Below, one piece after another: positions 26,989 through 60,465 of a stretch of DNA of 64,000 bases. The first letter of the stretch is position 1, and every line of letters starts with the position of its first letter. Both the position numbers and the translations under genes were made by a program. The notes beneath the pieces are model-generated. The model was not told the origin of the DNA and ran no database searches. It saw only the letters and a program-made list of their open reading frames with translations. This DNA comes from Collinsella sp. (GTDB lineage Bacteria; Actinomycetota; Coriobacteriia; Coriobacteriales; Coriobacteriaceae): positions 5,733-69,732 of the forward strand of contig DBEZXW010000076.1 in the NCBI GenBank assembly GCA_048291725.1. Direction: 5' to 3'.

Positions 26989-27399
26989 TTAGAGGACGAG
27001 CTGATGGTAGTCGGCGGGGGTTATGCGGCCTTCGGTGGCAGCGCGGAAGGCGGCAAGCGCATCGCCCGAGAACGGCATGGCCCAGCATAGCCCGCAGCCG
27101 GCGGTGATGGAGCCGGGCAGCGGCATGATGCGCCCGGGCACACCGGCGGCAAGACACAGCTGCTCGCATTCCATCACATCGAAGGTGCTATCGAACGAAA
27201 CGATAATCTTGCGCTCGTGGTCGAGGGCATCACCGGACGGGCCGCCGCGGTGTGCCTCACGATACGCCGCGGCGGCCGCTTCCTCTTCCGCAGTATGTCC
27301 ACAGCCACCGCAGCCGCAGGTACAGGGCTCGGACCCATCGCAAGCGCAAGGTTCCCCGGTATCGGGGCAAATATCATGTGACACGGCATCTCCCGTCAT
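26989..27399 (-). CDS. DUF3343 (putative Se/S carrier-like) domain protein with Cys-rich N-terminal extension
   Basis: The C-terminal part KIIVSFDSTFDVMECEQLCLAAGVPGRIMPLPGSITAGCGLCW matches the DUF3343 pattern (PxP...CG). The N-terminus ICPDTGEPCACDGSEPCTCGCGGCGH has 7 Cys in about 25 residues. Confidence 0.7.
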   Translation of the reverse strand: MTGDAVSHDICPDTGEPCACDGSEPCTCGCGGCGHTAEEEAAAAAYREAHRGGPSGDALDHERKIIVSFDSTFDVMECEQLCLAAGVPGRIMPLPGSITAGCGLCWAMPFSGDALAAFRAATEGRITPADYHQLVL

Positions 27400-27413
27400 C
27401 GATGTGTGCAGAT

Positions 27414-28046
27414 CTAGGCGAGCAGCTCGGCTGCCGCAAACTCCTCGGGCGTATTGACGTTCTCGAAGCAGAGCGTCGAGCCTGCGGCCTTAACGATCTG
27501 CGGTTCATCCATATAACCAGCCTGAACGCGATTGATCAGGCAGCGAATGCGCTGGCGGTCGCAGGCAAGCAGCTCTTGGGCAACCGGCGCACACGCGTCA
27601 CGGCGCCAGACGGCGCAAAGCGGCTCAATCCCCCGCTCCTCGCGCGGCACGCACACGTCGAGCGCCTCAGACTCAACACGATCGGCAAGCGCGCCGATCA
27701 GTTCTGGCGAGACGAACGGCATATCGCAGGCGACGATCGCCACGAGCGGCAATCGGGCCGCGGCCAACGAGCTCGCGATGCCGCGCATGGCACCCGCCGG
27801 TCCTTCAAGGTCCGCCACCACACGCGGCACCAGGCCGCCAAACGCGCGCTCCTCAAGATAGGCAAGCTCGCTGGGACGCGAAGTCGTCACGACCAACTCG
27901 CCGGCAACTGGCGCCAGCCGACCCAGCACACGCTCGATGAGCGGCTCGCCGCAAAACGCCAAGCGCGCCTTATCGCAGCCCATGCGCGAGGACATCCCGC
28001 CCGCTTGGACGACACAAGAAAGATCGGCACGTCTTACGGTAGTCAT
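27414..28046 (-). CDS. mobA: Molybdenum cofactor guanylyltransferase (or cytidylyltransferase) MobA-like
   Basis: SCVVQAGGMSSRMGCDKA ... VACDMPFV motifs. Start at the ATG at 28046 (MTTVRRADL) after GGAGGTG. The 312-aa track ORF is over-extended across selC. Confidence 0.8.
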   Translation of the reverse strand: MTTVRRADLSCVVQAGGMSSRMGCDKARLAFCGEPLIERVLGRLAPVAGELVVTTSRPSELAYLEERAFGGLVPRVVADLEGPAGAMRGIASSLAAARLPLVAIVACDMPFVSPELIGALADRVESEALDVCVPREERGIEPLCAVWRRDACAPVAQELLACDRQRIRCLINRVQAGYMDEPQIVKAAGSTLCFENVNTPEEFAAAELLA

Positions 28047-28135
28047 ACGGCAAAACACCTCCATCGGCATGTTCGAAACCCGACACACGAAGCCAAATAC
28101 CGCCGCCGAAATAACGGCGCTACGAAAAGCTCGTG

Positions 28136-28192
28136 CAAAAACAAAACAGCGCCTTTGCGGCACGCAGCAAGACCGCGAGCACAAAAGCGCTG
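28136..28192 (-). terminator. Hairpin plus U-tract downstream of selC
   Basis: Minus strand: CAGCGCTTTTG ... CAAAGGCGCTG (10 of 11 bp) followed by TTTTGTTTTTG. Confidence 0.55.
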
Positions 28193-28200
28193 GTAGCGTA

Positions 28201-28297
28201 TGGCGGGAACGTATGTGAATCGAACACATCCAAGACGTTTTGCACGCCTCGCAACGGTTTTGAGGACCGCGGAGCCCACCGGAGCCCATCCGTTCCC
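28201..28297 (-). tRNA. selC: tRNA-Sec (anticodon UCA)
   Basis: The 97-nt reverse-strand sequence is GGGAACGGATGGGCTCCGGTGGGCTCCGCGGTCCTCAAAACCGTTGCGAGGCGTGCAAAACGTCTTGGATGTGTTCGATTCACATACGTTCCCGCCA. Folded by hand it gives a 7 bp (+G-A) acceptor, a 6-bp D stem with a 4-nt loop, anticodon loop CCUCAAA, a long 6-bp variable arm, a 5-bp T stem with TTCGATT loop, discriminator G and CCA. It lies directly downstream of selA-selB. Confidence 0.85.
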
Positions 28298-28354
28298 AAG
28301 TGCGGCGGTATTTTACCAAACCGAAACGGCTCCATCCCAAAAAGACGAACAAGA

Positions 28355-28421
28355 AGTTGCGGTGGAATAGTTCCTGTATTTGCTGCCAAAGCCTCCAAAT
28401 AGGAACTATTTCACCGCAACT
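28355..28421. repeat. REP-like palindromic element, subfamily 2, copy D
   Basis: AGTTGCGGTGGAATAGTTCCTGTATTTG against CAAATAGGAACTATTTCACCGCAACT, with one G-T position and one bulge. It sits between the selB stop and selC. Confidence 0.85.
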
Positions 28422-28446
28422 GAGGAGGCGGGAGCGAGTGACCGGC

Positions 28447-30414
28447 CTAGCGCAGGGACCTCAAGCCGCCGGCGTCCTTGTCGAGCACCGTAAAGCGCAC
28501 GGCATCCAGGTGCTCCAAGATGCTGATGGCACGTTTGCGCGACACACCCAGGGCCTCGCGCAGTACGCTCGTGGTCGCAGCGCCACCGGCTGTCTCAATG
28601 GCAGCGGCAACAAGCTCGCGCGCATGGGCCTCGGCGGCAGCGGACAGGGCAACGTCGCGCTCGACCTTAACGATCGAGCGGTTGAGCGAAAGCTCGCGCA
28701 GGGCACGCGTCATGGTGTCGCGATCGAGCTGCAACTGCTCGCCAACCTCGGGCAGCGTCGGCGCATCGAGGCCGGCTTCGTCCAGCAAGGCAACGATCCG
28801 ATCGCAAGCCTCTCGCACCACGCGTGCGGCTGCGGCGGCCGAGTGTGGATCGAATACCTCGGCGCCCTCGGCGGCGCACACGCCACGCGAGCAGCCCTCG
28901 GCAATCAGAGCCGCGGCAACGCCTTCATCAGCGGCAGGCCACGCAGCATGGGCAACGGCGCCGGGCGTAAAGCCCGTCTCCTTGGGAGCCGCCGCGTGCA
29001 TGGCTGACAGGGTCGCCGCAAGTGCATCCATCCCGGCGTCCAGCACCACGGCGTCCGCATAGAGGTCCGCGTCGCCCACGGCAAGCTTGCAAACGGAGCC
29101 CTGCGCCACCAACCCACGCAGCACGGCATCGACCTCGCCGACACCAAGATCCAAAGCCTCGGCAATATCAACCGCCGCAACCGGCAGCGTCTGCAGCGCC
29201 AGCCAAGCGCCCACACCGCCCGCGATATCTCCGGCCTCGAGCGCCGCATACAGCGCACGCTCTCCTTCGGCAAGCTCGCGCGAGCGACGGCAGCGCGAAA
29301 GCAGCACACGCCCGCCGCCAATGAGCATCACGGGCGAATAGGACAGCACCACAGCATGGTCCCCGGCACGCAGCGGCAGCGAGTTTTCCAAGCGCACCTG
29401 AACAATACGGGTCTCGCCCACCGCCATGGGGGCCTCGCCCTCCATGAACATGATGCGACCGACAACCTCGGCTGTACCCGCCATCACGTGCACACGCGCA
29501 CCCGACTCGAGCATACGCGGCTTGGCTCCCTCGCGACCCAAGTAAGTGAACGTCATCATAAAGCGCAACGTCTGACCAAAGCGGTCCGCCACGCCCAGCA
29601 TCTCGCCACGGTCAAGCGCCGCGACACCGTCACCAACCAGGTTGAGCGCCACGCGTTGCCCAGGCAGCGCGCGCGGCGTATCGCCATGCACCTGAATCCC
29701 GCGGACACGGCAGACCGTACGCGACGGCAAAGCCATCAGCTCGTCGCCCACCGCAACCGGCGCATCGTGCAGCGTTCCCGTCACGACGGTGCCGGCGCCC
29801 TTGATCGTAAAGCAGCGGTCAATCGGCAGGCGCGGCGCGGCATCGCTCCGCTCGGCACGGTCGCGGCAAGAATCCCAGCAAGCGGCAACCTGCTCGTCGA
29901 GCGCAGCCAGCAGGTCATCGATTCCCGCGCCGGTCTTGGACGACACAGGCACAATCGGCGCATCCGCAAACACGGTACCCGACAAAAAGTCATCGACGTC
30001 GAGCTCGGCAAGCTCGGTCATCTCGGCGTCGGCCAAGTCACACATCGTCAGCGCGACCACCATATGCGTAACGCCCAGCAGCTCCAGCACATGCACGTGC
30101 TCGCGGGTCTGCGGCATTACGCCCTCAACGGCAGAGACCACCAGCACCGCCACGTCGATGCCCGTGGCGCCCTGCACCATGGCGCGCAAGTAATGCGCGT
30201 GGCCCGGCACGTCGACCAGGCCAACGATCTTGCCACTCGGCAGTGCCAGCTCGCCAAAGCCCAGCTCCACGGTCATACCGCGACGGCGCTCAACCTCCAG
30301 ACGGTCGGGATTCTTGCCGGTCAACGCCTCGATCAGTGCCGACTTACCATGGTCAACGTGGCCCGCCGTGCCAACGATAACGGGACACTCTACCAGCGCT
30401 TGAACCTCACTCAT
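28447..30414 (-). CDS. selB: Selenocysteine-specific translation elongation factor
   Basis: GTPase motifs GTAGHVDHGKSAL, DVPGH and the long C-terminal winged-helix extension (655 aa). ATGA overlap with selA. Confidence 0.95.
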   Translation of the reverse strand: MSEVQALVECPVIVGTAGHVDHGKSALIEALTGKNPDRLEVERRRGMTVELGFGELALPSGKIVGLVDVPGHAHYLRAMVQGATGIDVAVLVVSAVEGVMPQTREHVHVLELLGVTHMVVALTMCDLADAEMTELAELDVDDFLSGTVFADAPIVPVSSKTGAGIDDLLAALDEQVAACWDSCRDRAERSDAAPRLPIDRCFTIKGAGTVVTGTLHDAPVAVGDELMALPSRTVCRVRGIQVHGDTPRALPGQRVALNLVGDGVAALDRGEMLGVADRFGQTLRFMMTFTYLGREGAKPRMLESGARVHVMAGTAEVVGRIMFMEGEAPMAVGETRIVQVRLENSLPLRAGDHAVVLSYSPVMLIGGGRVLLSRCRRSRELAEGERALYAALEAGDIAGGVGAWLALQTLPVAAVDIAEALDLGVGEVDAVLRGLVAQGSVCKLAVGDADLYADAVVLDAGMDALAATLSAMHAAAPKETGFTPGAVAHAAWPAADEGVAAALIAEGCSRGVCAAEGAEVFDPHSAAAAARVVREACDRIVALLDEAGLDAPTLPEVGEQLQLDRDTMTRALRELSLNRSIVKVERDVALSAAAEAHARELVAAAIETAGGAATTSVLREALGVSRKRAISILEHLDAVRFTVLDKDAGGLRSLR

Positions 30415-31868
30415 CGAGCAATCGCCTTCTCAACGCACGCGACGAGCGTCGATGCCGCCGTCTCGATATCGCGGTCGCCCACGAGCGTACGGACGTCAAA
30501 CAAAATGCGATCGTGCGAGGTTCGTGTGACGACCGGAGTGTCGAAATCTTGGACGAGCGAGCGCTTGAGTGCGTCAACGGAAAGACGCTCATCGACAAGA
30601 CGCACGGCAACGCACATGGTGGGCAACTCGACGGTAGGCAGCGAGCCGCCGCCGGGAGTCGACGACTCGTCGACGATCTCCACCTGAACGGCGCACGGGC
30701 AGCCAGCCTTATCGAGGCCCGCCACCATCAGATCGCGCAACTTGCGTGCGCGACGCTCCAGATGAGCCTGCGGCAGCGTGAGCATGTTGAGTACCGGCAC
30801 TTCGCGATGGGCCACATCCGCCCCGTCCATGTAAATGCGCAGTGTAGCCTCGAGCGCCGCCAGTGCAAGCTTACCCGGACGCAGGGCACGCATAAGCGGA
30901 TGCGACCCGCAGGCCTGGACCAGATCGCGACGACCCATGATAATGCCCGCCTGTGCGGCACCGAGCAGCTTATCGCCCGAGCACGACACGATATCGAGCC
31001 CCGCCGCGACCGAAGCCGGCGTGGGCTCCTCACCGCCGCGCACCAGGATGTCGTCGGGCAACAGCGCGCCCGACCCCTGGTCCTCGTAGAACAGCAGGCC
31101 ATGCTTGTGGGCCAGAGTAGCAAGCTCCCGAGAGCCTACCTCCTCGTGAAAGCCCTCGATGCGATAGTTGGAAGGATGGACCTTGAGGATCATGGCCGTA
31201 TCGGGTGTGATGGCTTGCTCATAATCTGCCAGGTGCGTGCGGTTGGTGGCGCCGACCTCGACGAGTTTGGCGCCCGAAGCCGCCATGACATCGGGGATGC
31301 GGAAGCTGCCGCCAATCTCGACAAGCTCGCCGCGGCTGACGATGACCTCTTTACCCGCGGCATGGGTGGCAAGCACCAGCAGCACCGCGGCGGCATTGTT
31401 GTTGACCACGAGCGCGTCCTCGGCACCGGTGAGTGAGCGGATCAGCTGCGCGGCGTGCTCCTTGCGCGACCCGCGCGAACAGGTGTCGACGCTGTACTCG
31501 AGCGTGCTATACCCGCGCGCGACATCGGCCACGGCTTTGGCGGCTGATTCCGCGAGCGGGGCGCGACCCAAGTTGGTATGGATGACCACACCCGTGGCGT
31601 TGACGGCGGGACGCAGGCTCGGCAGCGCGGAGCGATGCGCACGCCACTCGATGGCCGAGGCCAGCTCGCGCTTGGAACGCGGGGCGGCGCCGGCACGAAT
31701 CGCGGCGCGCTCATCATCGAGCTCGGCCGTGACGGCGGCATGCACCACCGCGTCGCAGGTCTCCCCCGCCGCCTTCACAACCGGCCACTCTGCGAGCAGC
31801 TCGTTGACGGAAGGAATAGCGCGAAGGCGGGCGCGTACCTCATCGGACATGTTCTGGCTATCGCTCAT
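30411..31868 (-). CDS. selA: L-seryl-tRNA(Sec) selenium transferase
   Basis: 485 aa with full-length SelA similarity (NATGVVIHTNLGRAPL ... SGDKLLGAAQAGII with the PLP lysine). Confidence 0.95.
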   Translation of the reverse strand: MSDSQNMSDEVRARLRAIPSVNELLAEWPVVKAAGETCDAVVHAAVTAELDDERAAIRAGAAPRSKRELASAIEWRAHRSALPSLRPAVNATGVVIHTNLGRAPLAESAAKAVADVARGYSTLEYSVDTCSRGSRKEHAAQLIRSLTGAEDALVVNNNAAAVLLVLATHAAGKEVIVSRGELVEIGGSFRIPDVMAASGAKLVEVGATNRTHLADYEQAITPDTAMILKVHPSNYRIEGFHEEVGSRELATLAHKHGLLFYEDQGSGALLPDDILVRGGEEPTPASVAAGLDIVSCSGDKLLGAAQAGIIMGRRDLVQACGSHPLMRALRPGKLALAALEATLRIYMDGADVAHREVPVLNMLTLPQAHLERRARKLRDLMVAGLDKAGCPCAVQVEIVDESSTPGGGSLPTVELPTMCVAVRLVDERLSVDALKRSLVQDFDTPVVTRTSHDRILFDVRTLVGDRDIETAASTLVACVEKAIAR

Positions 31869-46821: not shown

Positions 46822-49044
46822 CTACACGATTTGGTTCACGTGCGTCTCGTCATCGAACTTGGCGGCGCCGGGCTCAACGTCCTGGGGAGCGGCGGCGTCC
46901 ACCAGAGCCTGCTTGAGCTCGGTGTACTGACGCTCCACCTCGCCCTCAGCCCAGACCTGGTCGGCGATAGCGTCGACCTGGCAGGCGGAGAACTTGTCCT
47001 CGGGCGTATGCGAGACCGGGTCGACCTTGTGAATGGTCAGCTCGTTGCACTTGCCGATCCACCACTGGTAGGTCATGTAGACCGTGCCCTTGTTGATGCG
47101 ATCGCTCACGTCGGCGCGGCTGTATACCTGGCCGCGGCGGCTGTGGATCGAGACGATGTCGCCATTCTTGATGCCGCGTGCCTCGGCGTCCGCGGGATTC
47201 ATGCGGACAAAGCCGGGCTCGTCGGCAAGCAGCGCCAGCGTCTTGCAGTTGCCGGTCATCGAGCGGCAGCTGTAGTGGCCGACCTCGCGGACGGTGCACA
47301 GGATGAGCGGGTACTCATCGTCGGGAAGCTCGGAGGGCGCCTCCCAGTCGTGCGCCATCAGGTTGGCGCGGCCGTCCTTGGTGGTGAACTTGCCACCAGC
47401 GAACATGTCGGGCGTACCGTGGTCGTTCACATCGGTGCTCTTGACGGGCCACTGGGCGTAGCCGCCCTCGGGAGCCATCTTCTCGTAGGTCGCGCCCACA
47501 AAGTTGGGGCACAGGCTAATGCACTCGTTCCAGATCTGCTCGGTGTTGTCGTAGTGCATGGGATAGCCCATACGCGTGGACAGGTCCGCGAAGATCTCCC
47601 AGTCATGGCGGCACTCGCCCTTGGGCGGAACAGCCGCGTCAAAGTGCTGGAAGCTACGGTCGGATGCGGTAAAGACACCCTCGTGCTCGCCCCAAGAGGT
47701 AGCGGGCAGGATGACGTCGGCGAGCATGGTCGTCTGCGTCATAAAGATGTCCTGGCAAATGAACAGATCCAGCTCGGAGAGCGTCTTGCGCATACCGGCC
47801 GAATCGGGCTCGGTCTGCACCGGGTCCTCGCCGTAGTTGTAGAAGCAGTGCACCTTGCCCTCGTCGACCAGGTGGCCCAGGTCGGTGAGCTTGTAGCCCT
47901 CCTCGAGCGGGAGCTTTTCCTCGGGCACGCCCCAAGCCTTGGCAAACTTGGCACGCACTGCCGGGTCGGTGACCTTCTGGTAGCCAGGGTACAGGTTGGG
48001 CAGCATACCCATATCGCAGGAGCCCTGGACGTTATTCTGGCCACGCACGGGCGCGAGGCCGGAATTGGGTTTGCCGATCTGGCCGGCAACGCAGGCGATG
48101 GAGGCGATGGTGTGCACCGTCTTCAGGTTCTGCTTCTGCTGGCATACGCCCATGCCCCAGCCAATGATGGCAGAGGGCTTCGCCGTGGCGTACATCTCGG
48201 CAGCTTGGTGGATCAACGCGGGCTCGACACCCGTGATGTCCTGTACGGATTCGGGAGTGTAGTTCTTGATGGTCTCCCACCACTCGTCAAAGCCGTTCGT
48301 GTGCTCGGCGACGAATTCCTTGTCGTAGAGGCCATCGTTGACCAAGCAGTTGGCAAAGGCGTTGAGGAACGCAACGTTGCAACCGTTCTTGATCGGAAGG
48401 TAGAGATCGGCGATACGCGCGGTTTCGATATGGCGCGGGTCGGCGACGATGATCTTGCAACCCTTTTCTTTGGCTCGCACGATACGCCTTGCGACGATGG
48501 GGTGCGAATCGGCAGGGTTATAGCCGAAGAGGAAAATGCAGCCCGCATCCTCCATACCGGGGATGGAGCATGACATGCAACCTGAACCAACCGTGTCCAT
48601 CAGACCGAGGACAGTAGGGCCGTGTCAAGTACGGGCGCAGTTGTCCACGCTGTGGGTGCCGATGCACGCACGCGTAAACTTCTGCATGACGTAGTTCGCC
48701 TCATTGCCGCCGCCTCGCGAAGAGCCGGTGGTCATGACAGCGTTAGGACCATATTCGTCAATTATGGCCTGCATCTTAGATGCGGTGAAATCCAGTGCCT
48801 CGTCCCAGCTTACGCGCTCAAGATCCGCGCCCTTAGTGCGGCGGATCATCGGGTGCAGTACGCGAGGAGTCAAGATCTTGGTGTCGTTGATGAAGTCGTA
48901 GCCGCTCATGCCCTTAAGGCACAGCTCGCTCTGGTTGGTGATGCCGTTGAGCGGTTCGGTGCCCACGACCTGGCCGTTTTGGACCAGGAGGTTGAACTGG
49001 CAACCGGCGCCGCAGTACGGGCAGATCACTTTATGCTTCTCCAT
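46822..49044 (-). CDS. fdhF: Formate dehydrogenase H, selenocysteine-containing (in-frame UGA at 48625-48627)
   Basis: Two track ORFs (48625..49095 and 46822..48600) join in frame. My translation across the gap reads VDNCART-U-HGPTVLGLMDTVGSGCMS, matching E. coli VDCCARV-U-HGPSVAGL. N-terminus is MEKHKVICPYCGAGC. Start at the ATG at 49044 after GGAAGGAGGG. Confidence 0.95.
48591..48624 (-). promoter_or_regulatory. Bacterial SECIS hairpin of fdhF
   Basis: The mRNA just 3-prime of the UGA is CACGGCCCUACUGUCCUCGGUCUGAUGGACACGG. The stem UGUCC/GGACA extends through U-A, C-G and G-U pairs to an apical GUC loop with a bulged U. The GU of the loop falls about 20-21 nt after the UGA. Confidence 0.6.
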
Positions 49045-53961: not shown

Positions 53962-53992
53962 CAAAAACGGGACGGGCAAAAGGCCCGTCCCG
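53962..53992 (-). terminator. Rho-independent terminator ending the selD operon
   Basis: Minus strand reads GGGACGGGC-CTTT-TGCCCGTCCC followed by GTTTTTGTTT. Confidence 0.8.
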
Positions 53993-54015
53993 CAAGTATA
54001 AACGGTCTAGCAGCT

Positions 54016-55155
54016 TTAGCAGGCTAAATCGCGCAAAGCATCAATCGCGGTGTCAACTTCCTCGTCCGTATTGAAATACCCAAACGAGAAGCGGACGACG
54101 CCCTGGCGCTCGGTCTCCAGCGCGCGGTGCATGAGCGGAGCGCAATGGGCACCGGGGCGCGTCGCAATCCCCCACCCTTGCATAAGCGCGTCCGAGATCT
54201 CGGCAGAGTCGATATCACCCACGTTGAGTGAGACGATCGCCGAACGCACGGGCTGGTCAAACGCACCGTAGAGCGCAATGCCGGGGATTTCGCGAACACC
54301 GGCGAGGAAGCGCTCCGCAAGCGAACGCTCATGCGCCGCAATCGCCTCGACCCCGCCTTGTGCCTCGATAAAGTCGAGACCGGCAGAAAGTCCCGCGATG
54401 CCGTGGCCGTTGAGCGTGCCCGCCTCAAGGCGCGTGGGCCACTCAAGCGGCTGCAGCGCATCGAAGCTGTGCACGCCCGTGCCGCCTATGGCCCACGGAG
54501 CCACGTCAATGCCCTCCGCCACGGCCAGGCCACCGGTGCCTTGAGGTCCCATGAGCCCCTTATGGCCGGTAAAGCACACCACGTCAAGCCCCATGGCCTG
54601 CATATCGATATGCGCCGTTCCGGCAGACTGCGAGGCATCGACGATTACCAGTGCACCTGCCGCATGGGCCATGGCGGCCACGCGTGCAATGTCGACCGAG
54701 TTGCCGGTCACATTGGAGGCGTGCGTCACCACTACGGCACGCGTGTCAGGCGTCACCAGCCGCTCGAGCTCGTCGTAGTCGAGCGCGCCGCTCGCATCGC
54801 AGCCCGCATGCTCAACGGTCACGCCCCGCTCTACCGCCAAGCGATTGAGCGGACGTAGCACGGAGTTGTGCTCGAGCACCGTCGTGACCACACGGTCGCC
54901 GGGGCACACCACCCCGTTGATGGCGGTGTTGAGCGCCGCCGTAGAGTTGGGCGTAAAGCACACATGGTCCGCCCTCGGGCAACCCAAAAGGCGCGCGAGC
55001 TTGGCGCGGCAACCGTGAATCGTACGAGCGGCATCGAGGGCACCCGACGTGGCGCCGCGTCCGGCATTGCCGAGCGAGCACATCGCCTGCGTCACGGCAT
55101 CGATGACCGTCTGCGGCTTGTGCATGGTCGTCGCCGCGTTATCCAGGTAGATCAT
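54016..55155 (-). CDS. Class V aminotransferase-fold cysteine desulfurase / selenocysteine lyase family protein
   Basis: MIYLDNAATT..., PLP lysine in FTGHKGLMGPQG, active-site Cys in RPGAHCAPL. It is the short-N-terminus clade often found beside selD. The ATGA overlaps the stop of the upstream gene. Confidence 0.85.
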   Translation of the reverse strand: MIYLDNAATTMHKPQTVIDAVTQAMCSLGNAGRGATSGALDAARTIHGCRAKLARLLGCPRADHVCFTPNSTAALNTAINGVVCPGDRVVTTVLEHNSVLRPLNRLAVERGVTVEHAGCDASGALDYDELERLVTPDTRAVVVTHASNVTGNSVDIARVAAMAHAAGALVIVDASQSAGTAHIDMQAMGLDVVCFTGHKGLMGPQGTGGLAVAEGIDVAPWAIGGTGVHSFDALQPLEWPTRLEAGTLNGHGIAGLSAGLDFIEAQGGVEAIAAHERSLAERFLAGVREIPGIALYGAFDQPVRSAIVSLNVGDIDSAEISDALMQGWGIATRPGAHCAPLMHRALETERQGVVRFSFGYFNTDEEVDTAIDALRDLAC

Positions 55156-55403
55156 CGCACGACCTCCCACATATCAATCACCGTAAAGCCCTCGGTGGGA
55201 ACGCCCGCCGCGGCGAGTTCGCCGCGCAGCAGTTCCTCATCGGCAGGCAACGCCTTCCACGCCAGACCGCAGCCGGCAGCGACCTCCCCGGGTACGGGAA
55301 TCGTTCGCCCGGGAAGACCGCGCTCAATGCACAGGGACTCGCAGCCCATGGCGGCCGCCGTGGTGGGAAACGTGATGACAAGCGCCGGGCGCTTCTCCCT
55401 CAT
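55152..55403 (-). CDS. DUF3343 (putative Se/S carrier-like) protein
   Basis: Start at the ATG at 55403. MREKRPALVITFPTTAAAMGCESLCIERGLPGRTIPVPGEVAAGCGLAWK fits the DUF3343 pattern. Paralog of 26989..27399. Confidence 0.75.
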   Translation of the reverse strand: MREKRPALVITFPTTAAAMGCESLCIERGLPGRTIPVPGEVAAGCGLAWKALPADEELLRGELAAAGVPTEGFTVIDMWEVVR

Positions 55404-55422: not shown

Positions 55423-56049
55423 CTACGGGCGCACGACGCGCACGGCCTGCTCCATCTTCTCCACAATCACGTACATATTCGTGACCTCGCCCACCGCGAG
55501 CTGGTCCTTAATGCCATAGTGATCGAGGCAGGTACCGCAGGTGAGAATCTCGACACCCTGCTCGGCCAGACCCTTCAGGTCGTCGAGCACCGGCGAGCCC
55601 TCGACGGTGAGCTTGGCGCCGCCGTTGTAGAACAGCATGGTCGCGGGCAGCTCCTCCTGCTGCGTCACGGCAAAGATAAACGCCTTCATGAGCTTGTGGC
55701 CCAGCTCGTCGTCGCCACGGCCCATGCAATCGGTGTAGACGGAAATGACGAGTTTGCCCTTGCCGGCGCTGGCGTCGCAGAAGGCAGCGCCATCCTGCTC
55801 AGGATCGGCCACGGCAACGGCGCCAGAGGTCGCCACGGCCACGTGCCACTCGGCGTCAGAAACCTTCTCGACCGAGGCCGTGCAGCCCTTCTCCTGCGCC
55901 ATCTTGGAGATGTTCTTGACGGCAGTCTCGTTATCGACCGAGGTCACCACGGCGCCCTCGCCATCGAGCTGCTTCAGGGCTTTGAGCGTCTTGACGACGG
56001 GCAGCGGGCAGGCATCGCCCATGGCATTGACTTCAATTTTGGTAGACAT
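55423..56049 (-). CDS. yedF: Selenium metabolism protein YedF-type (TusA/SirA-like N-domain fused to DsrE-like domain with CGTC motif)
   Basis: Start at the ATG at 56049. MSTKIEVNAMGDACPLPVVKTLKAL carries the TusA CPxP motif. The C-terminal ILTCGTCLDHYG is the CGxC redox motif. Sits next to selD, as is described for this family. Confidence 0.8.
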   Translation of the reverse strand: MSTKIEVNAMGDACPLPVVKTLKALKQLDGEGAVVTSVDNETAVKNISKMAQEKGCTASVEKVSDAEWHVAVATSGAVAVADPEQDGAAFCDASAGKGKLVISVYTDCMGRGDDELGHKLMKAFIFAVTQQEELPATMLFYNGGAKLTVEGSPVLDDLKGLAEQGVEILTCGTCLDHYGIKDQLAVGEVTNMYVIVEKMEQAVRVVRP

Positions 56050-56107
56050 AGCAAATTCCTTTCGAATAAATCTTTTTAGAACGGTACATAGCTCAATAAA
56101 CGTGTCG

Positions 56108-57157
56108 TTAACGGACAACGTGGACGGCAGGACCGTCTGGCACCGGCTCGTACACGCGACCGACGACGGCGGCGATACGTCCTTCGGCATGTAGACGGCG
56201 CGCAAGCTCATCCACATCGGCAGCAGGCGCCGCGATGAGCAAACCACCCGAGGTCTGCGGATCGTACAGCGCATCCAACATGCCCGGCTCAAGGTCCTCG
56301 TCGGCAGTCACGCGCGAGCCAAAGAAGTCCTGGTTGCGGTAGGCGCCGGCAGGGATAATGCCAAGGCGTGCCATGTCGAGCACTTGGTCAAAGAGCGGCA
56401 CCGCCCTCGACGCAAGCTCAATCTGCACGCCCGAGCCCTCGGCCATCTCGCACGCATGCCCGATCAGGCCAAAGCCCGTAATGTCGGTGCAACCGTGAAG
56501 CTCGAGCCCCTCGGCCAGACGGATCGGGGCCCCGTTGAGGGTGCGCATCGAGTCAAACATGGCTGCGGCCTCGTCCTGCTCGATGAGCTCGCCCTTAATG
56601 GCCGTGGTGATGATGCCCGAGCCAACCGCCTTGGTCAGCAGCAACGCATCGCCCACGCGCGCGCCACTGTTGGCGAGCATACGGTCAAGCGCGACAAACC
56701 CGCTCACGGACAGGCCGTACTTGGGCTCGTCGTCGTTGATGGTGTGGCCGCCCGCGATGGAGCAGCCGGCCTCGACGCACTTGTCGGCGCCGCCCGCCAG
56801 AATTTCGCCGGCGACCTCAACGCCCAAGCAACTGGGAATGCACAGCAGGTTCATGGCATGGCTCGGCCGCCCGCCCATGGCGTAGATGTCCGACAGTGAG
56901 TTTGCCGCGGCAATCTGGCCAAACAGAAACGGGTCGTCGACCATCGGTGGGAAGAAGTCGATGGACTGCACGAGCCCCAGGTTCTCCCCTACGCGGAAGA
57001 CGCTCGCATCGTCGGAGGTATCGAACCCCACGAGCAGATTGTCGTTATGCACATTGGGCAAGTCGCCCAGGACCTGGGCGAGGGCTCCGGGAGCCAGCTT
57101 AGCGGCTCAACCGCTCGCGGCAGTCATAGACGTGAGCTTAATCTGATCGTCAGCCAT
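56108..57157 (-). CDS. selD: Selenide, water dikinase (selenophosphate synthetase), selenocysteine-containing (UGA at 57107-57109)
   Basis: The track ORF starts at MPNVHNDNLLVG. Reading upstream in the same frame gives MADDQIKLTSMTAASG-U-AAKLAPGALAQVLGDLPNVHND, with the ATG at 57157 after GGAAGGGGG. The U aligns with Cys17 of the E. coli GCGCK loop, and the Lys is conserved. Confidence 0.9.
57063..57081 (-). promoter_or_regulatory. Candidate SECIS hairpin of selD
   Basis: UCGCCCAG-GUC-CUGGGCGA, an 8-bp stem with an apical GUC preceded by G (the same GGUC apex as in fdhF), 26-44 nt after the UGA. A smaller GGCUC-CCG-GAGCC hairpin lies at +12 to +24. Confidence 0.45.
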
Positions 57158-58367
57158 ACGAACCCCCTTCCAACAAATCAACGACTTTTAGTATACGCCC
57201 CAGGCACGCTTCCCAAGAGACCGCCGACGGCTCGAACGTCGAAGGCGGCGCCGCAAGCGCCTGCGCGATAGCATCTGCCAGTGCGCGCTCAAACAACGGA
57301 AGGTCGGCCGCCACGGGCGTGTCGACATCCGTCATACGCGGCGACGCCACCCACGTCACGGGAGCGCCGGGAAGCATCGCCTCCATCCAGGGACGAACGC
57401 CGGGCAAATCGGTCGCCACAACTTTGCAGCCGCACGCGAGGGCCTCGATCGTCACGAGCGGCAGACCCTCGTAAAACGAAGGCAGCACAAAGACGTCGGA
57501 ACTGCGGTAGGCATGCACGAGTCCATCGCTATCCAGGCGACCCGCCAGCTTCACCGGCACATCCGAGGCCGCGGCCAAGCGCTCGATACGCGCGTACTCG
57601 GCATCGTCCCCGCGACCGCCCACAAGTACCAAGCCAGATGGGCGGACGTCATCGTCAATCGACAATGACACGGCTCGAACCAGCGACTCGACACCCTTTT
57701 TAAAGCAAATCTTGCCCACGTACACAAGCGATCCCGGCCGCCTCGCCACGCTTGCGTCGCGGCAGAAGACGCGATGGTCGTAGCCCGTCCCAATCACGTG
57801 GATGCGATCGGCATCGACGCCGCACACCAGGCCAATCTGCTCAGCCTGCTCAGCATGGAGCGCAAAGACGACATCGAGCCGACGAACCGCACTTACGATG
57901 CGATCGCGCTCGAGCGCATGCGAACGCAGCTGGCGCAGATCGGTCGAATGGCACACGGCAACAACCGGCACGCCCCGGACGCACTCGCGCGCCAATGCGG
58001 TCACCAGATACAGGTGATGGCAGAGCACCAGATCGGGCCGAAACTCAGTCACCGCCCGATCGATTGCATTAGCAAATGCCCGCTCAAATGCCTTGAGCAT
58101 CGAAGGTGTCAGATCACGATAGCGTGTAGAGGGATAGGGCATGACATCGGACATACCGCAGATGGGAAACGGCAGCTCGGGCGACTCGAACGGTACGGCA
58201 AACACGGCAGCACGCCGGTCCAGCTCGCCTTGGGTATCACCCGGCGCCGCACCGCAAAGCACGGCGGCGCGATGCCCCGTCTCGATCTGCTCGCGCACAA
58301 GCGCGGCAAGGTAGGTGCCGCTGCCGGTGCTATCTGGTTTTTGTGCCGTGATATTGAGGATGCGCAT
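57150..58367 (-). CDS. GT4-family (GT-B) glycosyltransferase overlapping selD; candidate SenB-like selenosugar synthase
   Basis: Start at the ATG at 58367 (MRILNITAQKPDSTGSGTY). E-x7-E region is FVLPSFYEGLPLVTIEALACG. Its stop TGA overlaps the selD start (ATGGCTGA). The SenB-like call is inference from context only. Confidence 0.8.
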   Translation of the reverse strand: MRILNITAQKPDSTGSGTYLAALVREQIETGHRAAVLCGAAPGDTQGELDRRAAVFAVPFESPELPFPICGMSDVMPYPSTRYRDLTPSMLKAFERAFANAIDRAVTEFRPDLVLCHHLYLVTALARECVRGVPVVAVCHSTDLRQLRSHALERDRIVSAVRRLDVVFALHAEQAEQIGLVCGVDADRIHVIGTGYDHRVFCRDASVARRPGSLVYVGKICFKKGVESLVRAVSLSIDDDVRPSGLVLVGGRGDDAEYARIERLAAASDVPVKLAGRLDSDGLVHAYRSSDVFVLPSFYEGLPLVTIEALACGCKVVATDLPGVRPWMEAMLPGAPVTWVASPRMTDVDTPVAADLPLFERALADAIAQALAAPPSTFEPSAVSWEACLGRILKVVDLLEGGSYG

Positions 58368-58381
58368 GTCGCGGTACACCC

Positions 58382-59146
58382 CTAGGCCAAGGCGGCGGCG
58401 CGGACAGCGGCGCCGATCGCTCCGGCAAAGCGAGCCTGGGGCGAGGTGGTCACCGGCGATCCCAGTAGCTCGCCCAACCGCTCCACCACGAAGGCGTTCT
58501 CGCACAGGCCACCGGTCAGGTAGTACGGGGCGCCCGCGGCCTGCCCGGCCATGGTCGCCACGCGCGAGACCACGCTGTCGATCACGCCACGCGCAATGTT
58601 CTCGCGCGGCTCACCGCGACCGATCAGGCTGATGACCTCGCTTTCGGCAAACACCGTGCACATGCTGCTGATCTTGGTGGGCTCACCGGAACGCGCAAGG
58701 TCGGCCATCTGCTGTTGGGAAATACCCAGACGGTCGGCCATGATCTCCAAAAAGCGCCCCGTACCGGCAGCGCACTTGTCGTTCATGGCGAACTTGGCCA
58801 CGCGGCCACTTTTAAGCTGAATGACCTTGGTGTCCTGGCCGCCCACGTCAATCACCGTGCCGTGATCGCCAAACAGGCGCACGGCACCGGTACCGTGGCA
58901 GGTGATCTCGGTCACGACCTTGTGCGCATAGGGCACGGCGACACGACCGTAGCCGGTCGCGACCACGCGCGCGTCGTCGGCAGCCACGTCATAACCCGCC
59001 GCTGCCAGTGCCTCGCGCAGCCGCTCGGAAGCATCGACCGAGGAGAACCCGGTTGGCTGCACGCACGTCCACGCCACCGAACCCTCCCCATCGACCACAG
59101 CAGCCTTGGCCGCCGTAGACCCGATATCGATCCCGATCCCTATCAT
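58382..59146 (-). CDS. BcrA/BadF/HgdC-type ATPase (activase for 2-hydroxyacyl-CoA dehydratase / double-cubane proteins)
   Basis: IGIDIGSTAAKAAV, DVGGQDTK, and the cluster-bridging Cys motifs NDKCAAGTGRFLE and SMCTVFAESE are typical of the activase family. Confidence 0.9.
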   Translation of the reverse strand: MIGIGIDIGSTAAKAAVVDGEGSVAWTCVQPTGFSSVDASERLREALAAAGYDVAADDARVVATGYGRVAVPYAHKVVTEITCHGTGAVRLFGDHGTVIDVGGQDTKVIQLKSGRVAKFAMNDKCAAGTGRFLEIMADRLGISQQQMADLARSGEPTKISSMCTVFAESEVISLIGRGEPRENIARGVIDSVVSRVATMAGQAAGAPYYLTGGLCENAFVVERLGELLGSPVTTSPQARFAGAIGAAVRAAALA

Positions 59147-59301: not shown

Positions 59302-60465
59302 CTAGAGGGTTTCGATGAAGGCGGCGATGCGGGTCTCGATCTGACCCATGTCGCCGTTGCTGTAGTCGGTCTCGATCTTCATATACGGAATACCCGCACC
59401 CTCGACGGCCTCCTGCATACGGGCGCTCTCAACGTTGAAGGTGTGGCATGCCTGCAGCACGCTCTCCACTACGCCATCGACGTGATACTTCTCGCACATG
59501 GCCAGCGTATTTTCCATACGACCGTCGTTTGGCGTCATGACCGAGCAGTTGATGTCCAGGTAGCGGTCGGCGATGGCGCGCAGGATGTCGGGAGCCTCCG
59601 GGTCGACCATCATGGCCGCCGTGCGCTCGCCCGAGCAGTCGTCCATGCACACGACCACGCCGCCGTTGGACTCGATGGTGCGACCGATCTTGTTGATCAC
59701 GCCGCCCACCGGGCAGCCGGTGATCAGAATGCGCTTGGCATCCGCCGCGACCGGGCGCTCGCCCGCGTCGTAGGCTTCGCGCAGCTTGGCAACCTTTTGC
59801 TCCAGCTGCTGCGTATAGGCATCGATATCAAAGCTAAACGTACCGGCAAACATGGTGCTCATCAGGTCAACGCCGCTCATGGCCGCCGGCTGGTTGGCCT
59901 GCAGCGCAAACATCTCGAGCTGAGCCGCACGCAAGCGGTTGCGACGACGGACGGCAGCACGCAGGTCATCGTCGGTAATCGTGATGCCGTAGAAGTTCTC
60001 GAGTTCCTCCTTGAGCAGGCGGCATTCCTCGTACCAGCCCTCGCACTCGTAGGCGCGGTCGCGGCCCTGCGGAAGATGCAGAATGTGCGTGCGCTTGAGC
60101 TCATTGAGTAGCTCGTACATCTTCTTCTTGCCGTCGCAGGTGGTCTCGCCGATGATCATGTCGCTAAAGTACGTAAACGGGCACTTTTGCGAGTAGGCAA
60201 AACCGTACGTCGACTTGATGAGCGGGCACAGGTTTGCCGGCAGCACCTTCTCGGCCTCGGGAATCACCTCGTCGGATGTGCCGCACAAGGCCACACTTGC
60301 AGCGCCCGCGGCATCGATAATCTCAAGCGGCGTATAGCTGCACAAAAAGCCGACCAGGCGATTACCCGCCTGCTTATAATCCTTGACGCGAATAAACGCC
60401 GCCTTGCGTTGCTCGTTGAACTCCTCAAACGTGCGCGGCAACGGCTGTTCCTCGATTTCGGCCAT
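59302..60465 (-). CDS. 2-hydroxyacyl-CoA dehydratase-family protein of the double-cubane cluster (DCCP/YjiM-like) type
   Basis: Single 387-aa subunit. Start at the ATG at 60465 ([10 protein letters not shown]). Conserved Cys-containing segments are [36 protein letters not shown] and LQACHTF. No second dehydratase subunit is present. Confidence 0.75.

Follow-up and report, generated by a model that had tools for sequence, protein, structure and literature searches.

A selD-overlapping GT4 glycosyltransferase of Collinsella belongs to an uncharacterized family associated with selenium gene clusters in Coriobacteriia

A 64,000-nucleotide (nt) stretch of Collinsella sp. DNA (assembly GCA_048291725.1, contig DBEZXW010000076.1, positions 5,733 to 69,732; here called the window and numbered from its first letter) carries a minus-strand gene for a 405-amino acid (aa) glycosyltransferase (57150..58367; here called GT) whose 3' end overlaps selD, the gene for selenophosphate synthetase. 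GT is a new, uncharacterized member of family GT4 with a conserved, class-restricted association with selenium gene clusters, and its link to selenium is real within the class Coriobacteriia. An earlier note made from the letters of this DNA had proposed that GT may be SenB-like; judged by sequence comparison, GT is not a homologue of this Se-glycosyltransferase. The reading that we favour, at a probability of roughly one half, is that GT resembles MshA, GlgM and sucrose-phosphate synthase (SPS), glycosylates a small anionic acceptor, and has been recruited to selenium handling in Coriobacteriia.

SenB is the only enzyme family known to place selenium in sugar, and the accessory genes around bacterial selD (yedF, DUF3343, yedE and the double-cubane reductases) are functionally unexplained. 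Because its place inside sel operons is kept across three Coriobacteriia families, the GT family is a readily testable candidate: it could supply a step that is missing from the trafficking of selenium, or from the formation of selenometabolites, in bacteria abundant in the human gut (Collinsella and Eggerthellaceae). Comparative genomics has linked to selenium yedF, DUF3343 and selenocysteine (Sec) lyase (Kayrouz 2022) and yedE (Lin 2015, PMC5322559), and has placed 955 of 970 double-cubane proteins in SelD-positive assemblies (Haft 2022). GT is likewise tied to SelD by comparative genomics only, in clusters shared with yedF, DUF3343, yedE, sclA and the double-cubane cluster protein (DCCP), but whereas these are recognized as selenium-linked (Lin 2015; Haft 2022; Kayrouz 2022), the GT family is not. 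It is not among the top ten selD-overlapping families of Kayrouz 2022, and in the literature no selD-linked GT4 enzyme or selenosugar pathway of anaerobes was found beyond the SenB papers and one STRING table.

The GT protein begins MRILNITAQKPDSTGSG (minus-strand open reading frame [ORF] 58367 to 57150), and the start at 58367 is taken to be correct because this N-terminus agrees with that of every homologue in the alignment; a 451-aa mechanical ORF from 58505 is an upstream extension of the same frame and not the true start. Four Pfam models match (PF13439, 65.7 bits; PF13579, 53.8 bits; PF00534, 66.9 bits; PF13692, 75.2 bits). With Glyco_transf_4 and Glycos_transf_1/Glyco_trans_1_4 above the gathering score, a GT-B fold and an EX7E motif, the protein falls in CAZy family GT4, which is classed as retaining; retention would be the expected stereochemistry. 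The nucleotide-sugar binding motif E300-x7-E308 (EGLPLVTIE, 57444..57470) is invariant in both alignments, and the translation agrees with the E-x7-E region read by the earlier note. Two lysines, K219 and K224, lie in GKICFKKG (57696-57713). The AlphaFold2 (AF2) model has a two-Rossmann fold and a predicted local distance difference test (pLDDT) score of 89.5.

The N-terminal (acceptor) domain contains the loop FPICGMSDVMPYPSTRY (58119..58169, codons 67-83), in which G71, M72, S73, D74, M76, P77, Y78, T81, R82 and Y83 are invariant among 16 aligned Coriobacteriia sequences. This loop had been singled out as unusual; it is present as described, and it is the signature of a whole family. Since pLDDT is lower for loop residues 71-80 (65), the model suggests that the loop is probably flexible. 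The Cys of CHHLYL was considered as a further special residue and was set aside: CHH is absent from many members outside the window's clade, and this Cys seems to occupy the small-residue position of an H-x-H type motif, which we take to be common in GT4 N-terminal domains.

We define the GMSDxMPY family by an invariant G-M-S-D-x-M-P-Y, H118, H140, Q146, GKxxxxKG and EX7E in a protein of approximately 400 aa, all of which the window GT has. A word-index search recovered 3514 homologues among 8000 scored candidates; a search of representatives recovered 630 clusters (50% identity) at E <= 1e-30. GMSDxMPY is found in approximately 140 of the 150 best representatives, and the defining residues are invariant from Coriobacteriia to low-GC members (32-45% identity); R82, T/S142 and R145 are mostly kept. 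Members with a taxon name belong, among Actinobacteria, to Collinsella, Olsenella, Thermophilibacter, Slackia, Arabiibacter and Eggerthellaceae and, among Clostridia, to Syntrophaceticus, Peptococcaceae, Sporanaerobacter and Clostridium niameyense; the habitats are mostly anoxic. Because the acceptor-side residues are identical throughout the family, we infer that all members catalyse one shared reaction.

Some family members are fused to other domains: DUF6873 (two clusters), a GFO/IDH/MocA sugar-type oxidoreductase, and a gamma-glutamyl-cyclotransferase (GGACT)-like domain (P0191, P0204, P0256, P0217). The DUF6873 partner has no PDB or NCBIfam match, and these fusions give hints only, with no acceptor pinpointed. 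Two-domain activase-GT calls of 602-669 aa (P0001, P0006-P0009) were rejected as Rosetta-stone evidence. No stop codon interrupts the GT frame over the 138 nt 5' of its ATG. Each of these proteins leaves the activase frame for this open stretch towards the end of the activase gene, and three or four different switch points are seen; because they are singletons, they are regarded as frameshift or assembly artefacts. The junction of another such call (P0013) is not readable.

The overlap of GT with selD spans 8 nt on the minus strand (57150..57157): the GT stop codon TGA (57150-57152) lies inside ATGGCTGA (57157-57150), whose ATG opens selD. A purine-rich GAAGGGGG is positioned approximately 6 nt 5' of this ATG, within the GT coding region. 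The earlier note had reported the overlap in this stretch, and an overlap recurs in related Collinsella loci. Because the two reading frames overlap in every one of the 77 Collinsella loci with both genes, the arrangement is more than chance. The overlap is of 8 nt in 72 loci (ATGGCTAA in 60, ATGGCTGA in 11 and ATGGATAA in one) and of 19-20 nt in the remaining five. It persists while the GT stop codon varies (TAA or TGA), and it is kept in Collinsella loci whose GT allele has only 70% identity. This arrangement suggests translational coupling of GT and selD.

The divergent alleles (L077-L080) are 70-71% identical in protein and 55-78% in DNA to window positions 57150-58367, and the flanking activase, selD, yedF and sclA genes of these loci are at approximately 85-95% DNA identity. 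In a sliding-window comparison of L077, the drop in identity begins and ends at the borders of the GT gene. This looks like a cassette-like allelic replacement at a fixed position. A further sequence (P0014) looks mosaic, with a divergent N-terminal half and a near-identical C-terminal half.

In the window, GT is the third gene in a closely packed minus-strand row of seven. The first two are a double-cubane [8Fe-9S] cluster anaerobic reductase (DCCP, 59302..60465; NF040772, 497 bits against a cutoff of 350; Pfam HGD-D) and an ATP-dependent activase of the BcrAD/BadFG family (58382..59146; TIGR00241, 235 bits; Pfam PF01869). GT is followed by selD (56108..57157), yedF (TusA-like plus DsrE-like, 55423..56052; TIGR03527, 213.5 bits against a cutoff of 110; Pfam TusA and DsrE), a DUF3343/Se_S_carrier gene (55152..55403, ATG at 55401-55403; PF11823, 66.5 bits), and an EF2568/SclA-type class-V aminotransferase (selenocysteine lyase/cysteine desulfurase, here sclA; 54016..55170; Pfam Aminotran_5). 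The last scores 413 bits with TIGR01977 (cutoff 377) and 345 bits with the SclA model, under its cutoff of 525. The DCCP-activase and activase-GT gaps are 155 and 14 nt, the selD-yedF and yedF-DUF3343 gaps are 55 and 19 nt, and DUF3343 overlaps sclA by 19 nt.

Directly after sclA, and before brnQ, there is an intrinsic-terminator-like hairpin on the same strand (53967..53993; an 11-bp stem with 9 GC, and a T tract) that probably marks the operon end. It is a consensus match in a region whose match total is not above that of shuffles, yet it is by far the strongest stem. The likely Collinsella operon is (DCCP)-activase-GT-selD-yedF-DUF3343-sclA, then the terminator, and its genes would be transcribed together.

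The window comes from a genome that resembles Collinsella aerofaciens. Scanning of genome contigs returned Collinsella loci only (80 loci at 70-99% identity, 76 of them at 91-99% aa identity); wider synteny comes from exact-protein look-ups and from a scan of metagenomes that started from a Firmicutes-type member. All 80 Collinsella loci have the order DCCP-activase-GT-selD-yedF-DUF3343-sclA-brnQ as far as the contigs reach, with DUF3343 at the equal position wherever they reach that far and brnQ absent from the aligned stretch in some. Thermophilibacter has selD-selA-selB-yedF-DUF3343-GT-sclA-ABC, in which GT and sclA overlap by 4 nt; Arabiibacter has selB-selA<>GT-sclA-yedF-DUF3343, then selD on the opposite strand; and Slackia faecicanis has selB-selA<>GT. 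Metagenome loci of 63-64% GC (L120/L135, L154 and L164) contribute three further sel-cluster arrangements with GT, that of L120/L135 being selB-selA<>DCCP-yedF-DUF3343<selD>activase-sclA-GT. GT is thus found within sel clusters in at least six arrangements and three families (Coriobacteriaceae, Atopobiaceae and Eggerthellaceae), and its commonest immediate neighbour there is the Sec-lyase-like gene sclA. A Slackia heliotrinireducens 'glycosyltransferase' (Shel_25140) is listed, without comment, as a STRING partner of yedE (Shel_25130), the gene numbered next to it (Lin 2015, PMC5322559).

Comparison with SenB was uniformly unfavourable to homology beyond a generic C-terminal domain. The SenB hidden Markov model (HMM) TIGR04348 scores GT at 20.7 bits where the cutoff is 300 (E = 1.7e-4; only residues 204-324 match), and BLASTP with the Variovorax paradoxus SenB, whose sequence Kayrouz & Seyedsayamdost give in their supplement, yields E = 0.13. 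Profile-profile alignment of the GT family with SenB (hhalign, probability 82%) covers 114 columns of the generic C-terminal nucleotide-sugar domain (GT columns 213-330 to SenB 144-257). The SenB structures 8jjq, 8fbx, 8jjn and 8k5u, present in the PDB copy used, are not in the 60 best profile matches of GT, nor in the 50 best Foldseek matches of its AF2 model. A homologous N-terminal domain with the SenB selenophosphate (SeP) pocket (N20, H58, R61, T83, T85, R155) was not found in GT by BLASTP or hhalign. There are loose look-alikes of the pocket residues (H117/H118 and H140-S-T142-D-L-R145), which we take to be motifs common to other GT4 enzymes.

The sole SenB-alignable parts of GT are GKICFKKG (with SenB GHLRQVK) and EGLPLVTIE (with SenB EGGAHVIME), the SenB stretches that contain K158, E231 and E239 in the numbering of the SenB papers. 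GT does have a GT-B fold, EX7E and a lysine (K224) that aligns with the K158 stretch. Because EX7E and the lysine motif are seen throughout the family and again in related GT4 enzymes, these features look generic and are not diagnostic of SenB. GT is also longer than SenB (405 against approximately 326 aa), with the signature loop as an extra element and an acceptor domain without detectable homology.

The arrangement of the genes resembles the SenB/SenC cassette. In the selenoneine and ovoselenol clusters a TIGR04348 Se-glycosyltransferase is paired with a SelD homologue, and the literature agrees with the earlier note that the two pathways share this senBC selenosugar cassette. The window GT is likewise encoded by a GT-B gene beside selD, with the 8-nt overlap, and its structural neighbourhood (MshA, SPS, BshA) is that of SenB; the closest structures of SenB are MshA, SPS and BshA, and its SeP pocket corresponds to the phosphate pocket of MshA (PMC10702425). 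No NHISS partner (SenA/OvsA) was found in the operon, nor at 44-64 kb of the window among ORFs that encode 150 aa or more, the rest of the genome being outside this search.

The SelD of the window also differs from SenC. Its gene has 349 codons and an in-frame TGA at codon 17 (57107-57109) within the motif SG-U-AAKLAPG (translation ...TAASG*AAKLAPG...); it therefore encodes a selenoprotein SelD and is not a truncated ORF. The product is 69% identical to Thermophilibacter SelD, which has a matching in-frame TGA, and homologues bear Pfam AIRS/AIRS_C. The window also contains selA (30411-31868), a probable selB assigned by position and size only (28447-30414, overlapping selA by 4 nt) and tRNA-Sec (selC, 28201-28297), all on the minus strand, as well as a formate dehydrogenase with a Sec codon in CART-TGA-HGP (TGA at 48625-48627). 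Because these share the window, SelD is the organism's general, housekeeping, Sec-containing enzyme and not a dedicated SenC-like copy. Of the earlier suggestion that a SelD-GT pair marks a new selenometabolite, what holds is that a GT4/GT-B enzyme is encoded beside selD and inside the sel clusters of several Coriobacteriia genera, a stronger association than the letters alone could show; against it, this SelD is housekeeping and the GT family lies mostly away from selenium genes.

The characterized relatives of GT share its scaffold. The best solved relative by profile is GlgM, an alpha-maltose-1-phosphate synthase (6tvp, 1e-23), followed by SPS, MshA and BshA; the top Foldseek matches are SPS, MshA, a methylmannose-polysaccharide mannosyltransferase, GlgM and BshA. 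No NCBIfam equivalog matches: the best model is the GlgM-type TIGR02149 (glgA_Coryne; 61.5 bits against a cutoff of 302.4), and the MshA (TIGR03449) and BshA (TIGR03999) models give 48.6 bits (cutoff 462.5) and 35.1 bits (cutoff 273.7). GlgM, the best match by both solved structure and NCBIfam, has the same GT4 scaffold and a soluble phosphorylated acceptor, but it is only 22-23% identical (Foldseek), aligns over residues 127-391 and has no counterpart of the signature loop. MshA and BshA, the GlcNAc transferases of mycothiol and bacillithiol synthesis, are top fold matches and solitary soluble GT4 enzymes like GT, which differs in falling under both HMM cutoffs and in having no downstream thiol-pathway genes nearby. 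The acceptors of these relatives are glucose 1-phosphate (GlgM), inositol 1-phosphate (MshA), fructose 6-phosphate (SPS) and malate (BshA).

Outside Coriobacteriia, the survey covered 80 metagenome loci, three genomes of Clostridia, a GT-DUF6873 fusion locus and a short contig; of the 80, at least 3 kb of flank is available on one side in 51 and on both sides in 24. A PHP phosphoesterase gene lies just downstream of GT in 10 loci (assigned by Pfam from L086 and by BLASTP clustering in the other nine). A PP2C_2-like gene is beside GT in four loci, upstream in three and downstream on the opposite strand in one (the family representative has no Pfam match), and a HAD hydrolase gene is upstream of GT in Olsenella. 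A rhodanese-domain membrane protein is encoded near GT in four loci. Among the 25 most recurrent neighbour families, most of which carry no annotation, no polysaccharide or envelope family was noted. Because three unrelated phosphatase-type families adjoin a solitary GT4 gene whose relatives take phosphorylated acceptors, this suggests, by analogy, a synthase/phosphatase two-step like SPS/SPP or MshA/MshA2.

Two further observations concern these loci. In eight that look closely related (L140, L142, L145, L146, L149, L153, L162, L168), GT begins within or right after the 3' end of a dihydrofolate reductase gene (Pfam DHFR_1), with a thymidylate-synthase-like gene, recognized by eye, just upstream of that gene in six. 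In a 1.4-kb contig of 40% GC (L091, positions 1-300), the 3' end of a yedF-like gene is directly upstream of GT, its stop codon adjoining the GT ATG; the yedF-like gene has an in-frame TAA. No other selenium-linked case was seen outside Coriobacteriia, and so short a contig allows no firm judgement.

In the reading that we favour, GT would be a soluble nucleotide-sugar glycosyltransferase on a GT4 scaffold that transfers a hexose or N-acetylhexosamine to an acceptor that is soluble, small, anionic and probably phosphorylated, as its relatives do. In other lineages a neighbouring phosphatase probably completes the pathway. This chemistry would be family-wide and not confined to selenium loci; in Coriobacteriia the enzyme would have been drawn into an operon that activates and traffics selenium, and its product may be a glycoside that serves to carry, buffer or consume selenium in reduced or activated form. 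Because GT stays in rearranged sel clusters and overlaps selD, its product most likely serves selenium handling in this class.

Several observations weigh against this proposal. Selenium genes are absent from 75 of the 80 metagenome loci and occur only in four Coriobacteriia-like loci and L091. Within the class, an Olsenella sp. (L088) and locus L090 have GT with the ABC transporter found downstream of it in Thermophilibacter, and no selenium gene within 10 kb, and an Olsenella-type selD-yedF-sclA cluster (L171) is without GT; a GT-positive, SelD-negative Olsenella cannot be claimed, as the SelD search found SelD in some Olsenella. The Coriobacteriia sel clusters are without a phosphatase, the acceptor type rests on analogy with fold neighbours that do not discriminate, and co-transcription is deduced from spacing and a terminator motif. 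Conserved proximity in one class could also partly reflect shared ancestry.

This last point leads to the view that GT is a housekeeping enzyme unrelated to selenium, acting on a compatible solute, a storage glycan or an envelope precursor, and that its proximity to sel genes is inherited Coriobacteriia gene order. We consider this unlikely, though a serious competitor. Most members are solitary and stand in unrelated contexts (nrdDG, thyA-folA, yjjI/yjjW and others), and the loci just named show GT without sel genes and a sel cluster without GT; that some Collinsella have had the gene replaced, within sharp borders, by the 70% allele fits as well. It is difficult to reconcile with the persistence of GT in or beside sel genes across Coriobacteriaceae, Atopobiaceae and Eggerthellaceae despite repeated reordering, with reading frames that overlap or nearly abut selD or sclA, and with a divergent allele that retains both position and overlap. 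Were GT unrelated to selenium, it would still represent a large family (~630 clusters at 50% identity) with a sharp active-site signature and a probable synthase/phosphatase logic.

A selenosugar synthase that arose by convergence with SenB is rather doubtful. Such an enzyme would take selenophosphate (from SelD) or perselenide/selenide (from SclA, YedF or DUF3343) and form a C-Se glycosidic bond; equally doubtful is the corresponding product, a selenosugar or glycosyl-selenophosphate made, possibly with involvement of DCCP, in strict anaerobes unable to use the O2-dependent SenA/OvsA. Collinsella is a strict anaerobe. The selD overlap that suggests coupling, the sel clusters in at least six arrangements, the Sec-lyase-like gene as most frequent direct partner, the conserved His/Thr/Arg of the GT N-terminal domain and the yedF 3' end upstream of GT in low-GC contig L091 all fit. 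The appeal of the idea is that selenophosphate, too, is an anion that is small and phosphorylated; hydrolysis of Se-P, for which SenB uses its K158, could fall to a separate phosphatase such as those adjoining GT elsewhere. SenB itself belongs to the MshA/SPS/BshA neighbourhood and binds SeP where MshA binds phosphate (PMC10702425), so fold neighbours alone cannot settle the matter. It is opposed by the lack of SenB homology beyond the generic C-terminal domain, by an active-site signature that recurs in the 75 loci without a selenium gene and in the Olsenella-type GT loci without sel genes, by the selD cluster L171 without GT, and by a SelD that is the general Sec enzyme and not a dedicated paralogue. 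GT4 is moreover classed as a retaining family, unlike the SenB reaction. If true, this reading would provide another route to C-Se (or Se-carrier) glycosides, evolved independently of SenB, and a new class of human-gut selenometabolite pathway.

Least probable of the readings weighed here is the first step of a low-molecular-weight thiol pathway, in which the thiol would reduce selenite and carry selenium to SelD as a selenotrisulfide or perselenide. The earlier note had offered a BshA/MshA-like enzyme as its alternative, and this does fit the fold neighbours better than SenB, MshA and BshA being among the best fold and sequence matches; what fails is membership, as both HMM scores are far below cutoff. 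Redox- or sulfur-type neighbours occur elsewhere (MsrA, rubrerythrin, nitroreductase, and the rhodanese membrane protein in four loci), and one GT member is fused to a gamma-glutamyl-cyclotransferase-like domain, but this neighbour evidence is anecdotal. Among annotated neighbours of the loci with Pfam tables, no deacetylase (BshB/MshB), cysteine ligase (BshC/MshC) or MshD-like function is recognizable. Neither the annotated recurrent families (PHP, DHFR, rhodanese) nor those recognized by eye or from the composition of the locus (thymidylate synthase, PP2C_2-like, ABC-type) suggest BshB, BshC, MshB or MshC, most of the 25 recurrent families carrying no annotation.

The ABC transporter beside GT recurs in Atopobiaceae-type loci (L081, 10420-14111; L088, 13223-16998; L090, 11368-14909), where GT is followed by the same transporter whether sel genes are present or not. 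It comprises a fused permease, an ATPase (TOBE_2 in L081 and L088) and a binding protein of SBP_bac_1/11 type; sugar-phosphate, iron or oxyanion substrate types are possible. The GT-less cluster L171 (4974-12876) encodes DUF3343, TusA, YedE (Sulf_transp), a class-V aminotransferase, a C_GCAxxG_C_C protein, an SLAC1/TehA-like transporter, a further DUF3343, selD, yedF and sclA.

DCCP and its activase lie directly upstream of GT-selD in the window, a physical linkage that supports the DCCP-SelD co-occurrence of Haft 2022. In the Eggerthellaceae-like loci L120 and L135 they are interleaved with yedF, DUF3343, selD and sclA, and most Collinsella loci have a second DCCP paralogue (~39% identity) further upstream. 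Hairpins form in the folded RNA 3' of the selD TGA (-28 kcal/mol, z = -1.9) and may represent a selenocysteine insertion sequence (SECIS) element. In-frame TGA codons cause ORF callers to split or truncate both selD and the formate dehydrogenase gene. The selA-selB-tRNA-Sec region (27082-31868), at a distance of 22 kb from the GT-selD operon, is a second selenium locus, and it includes a second DUF3343-like fragment (27082-27207).

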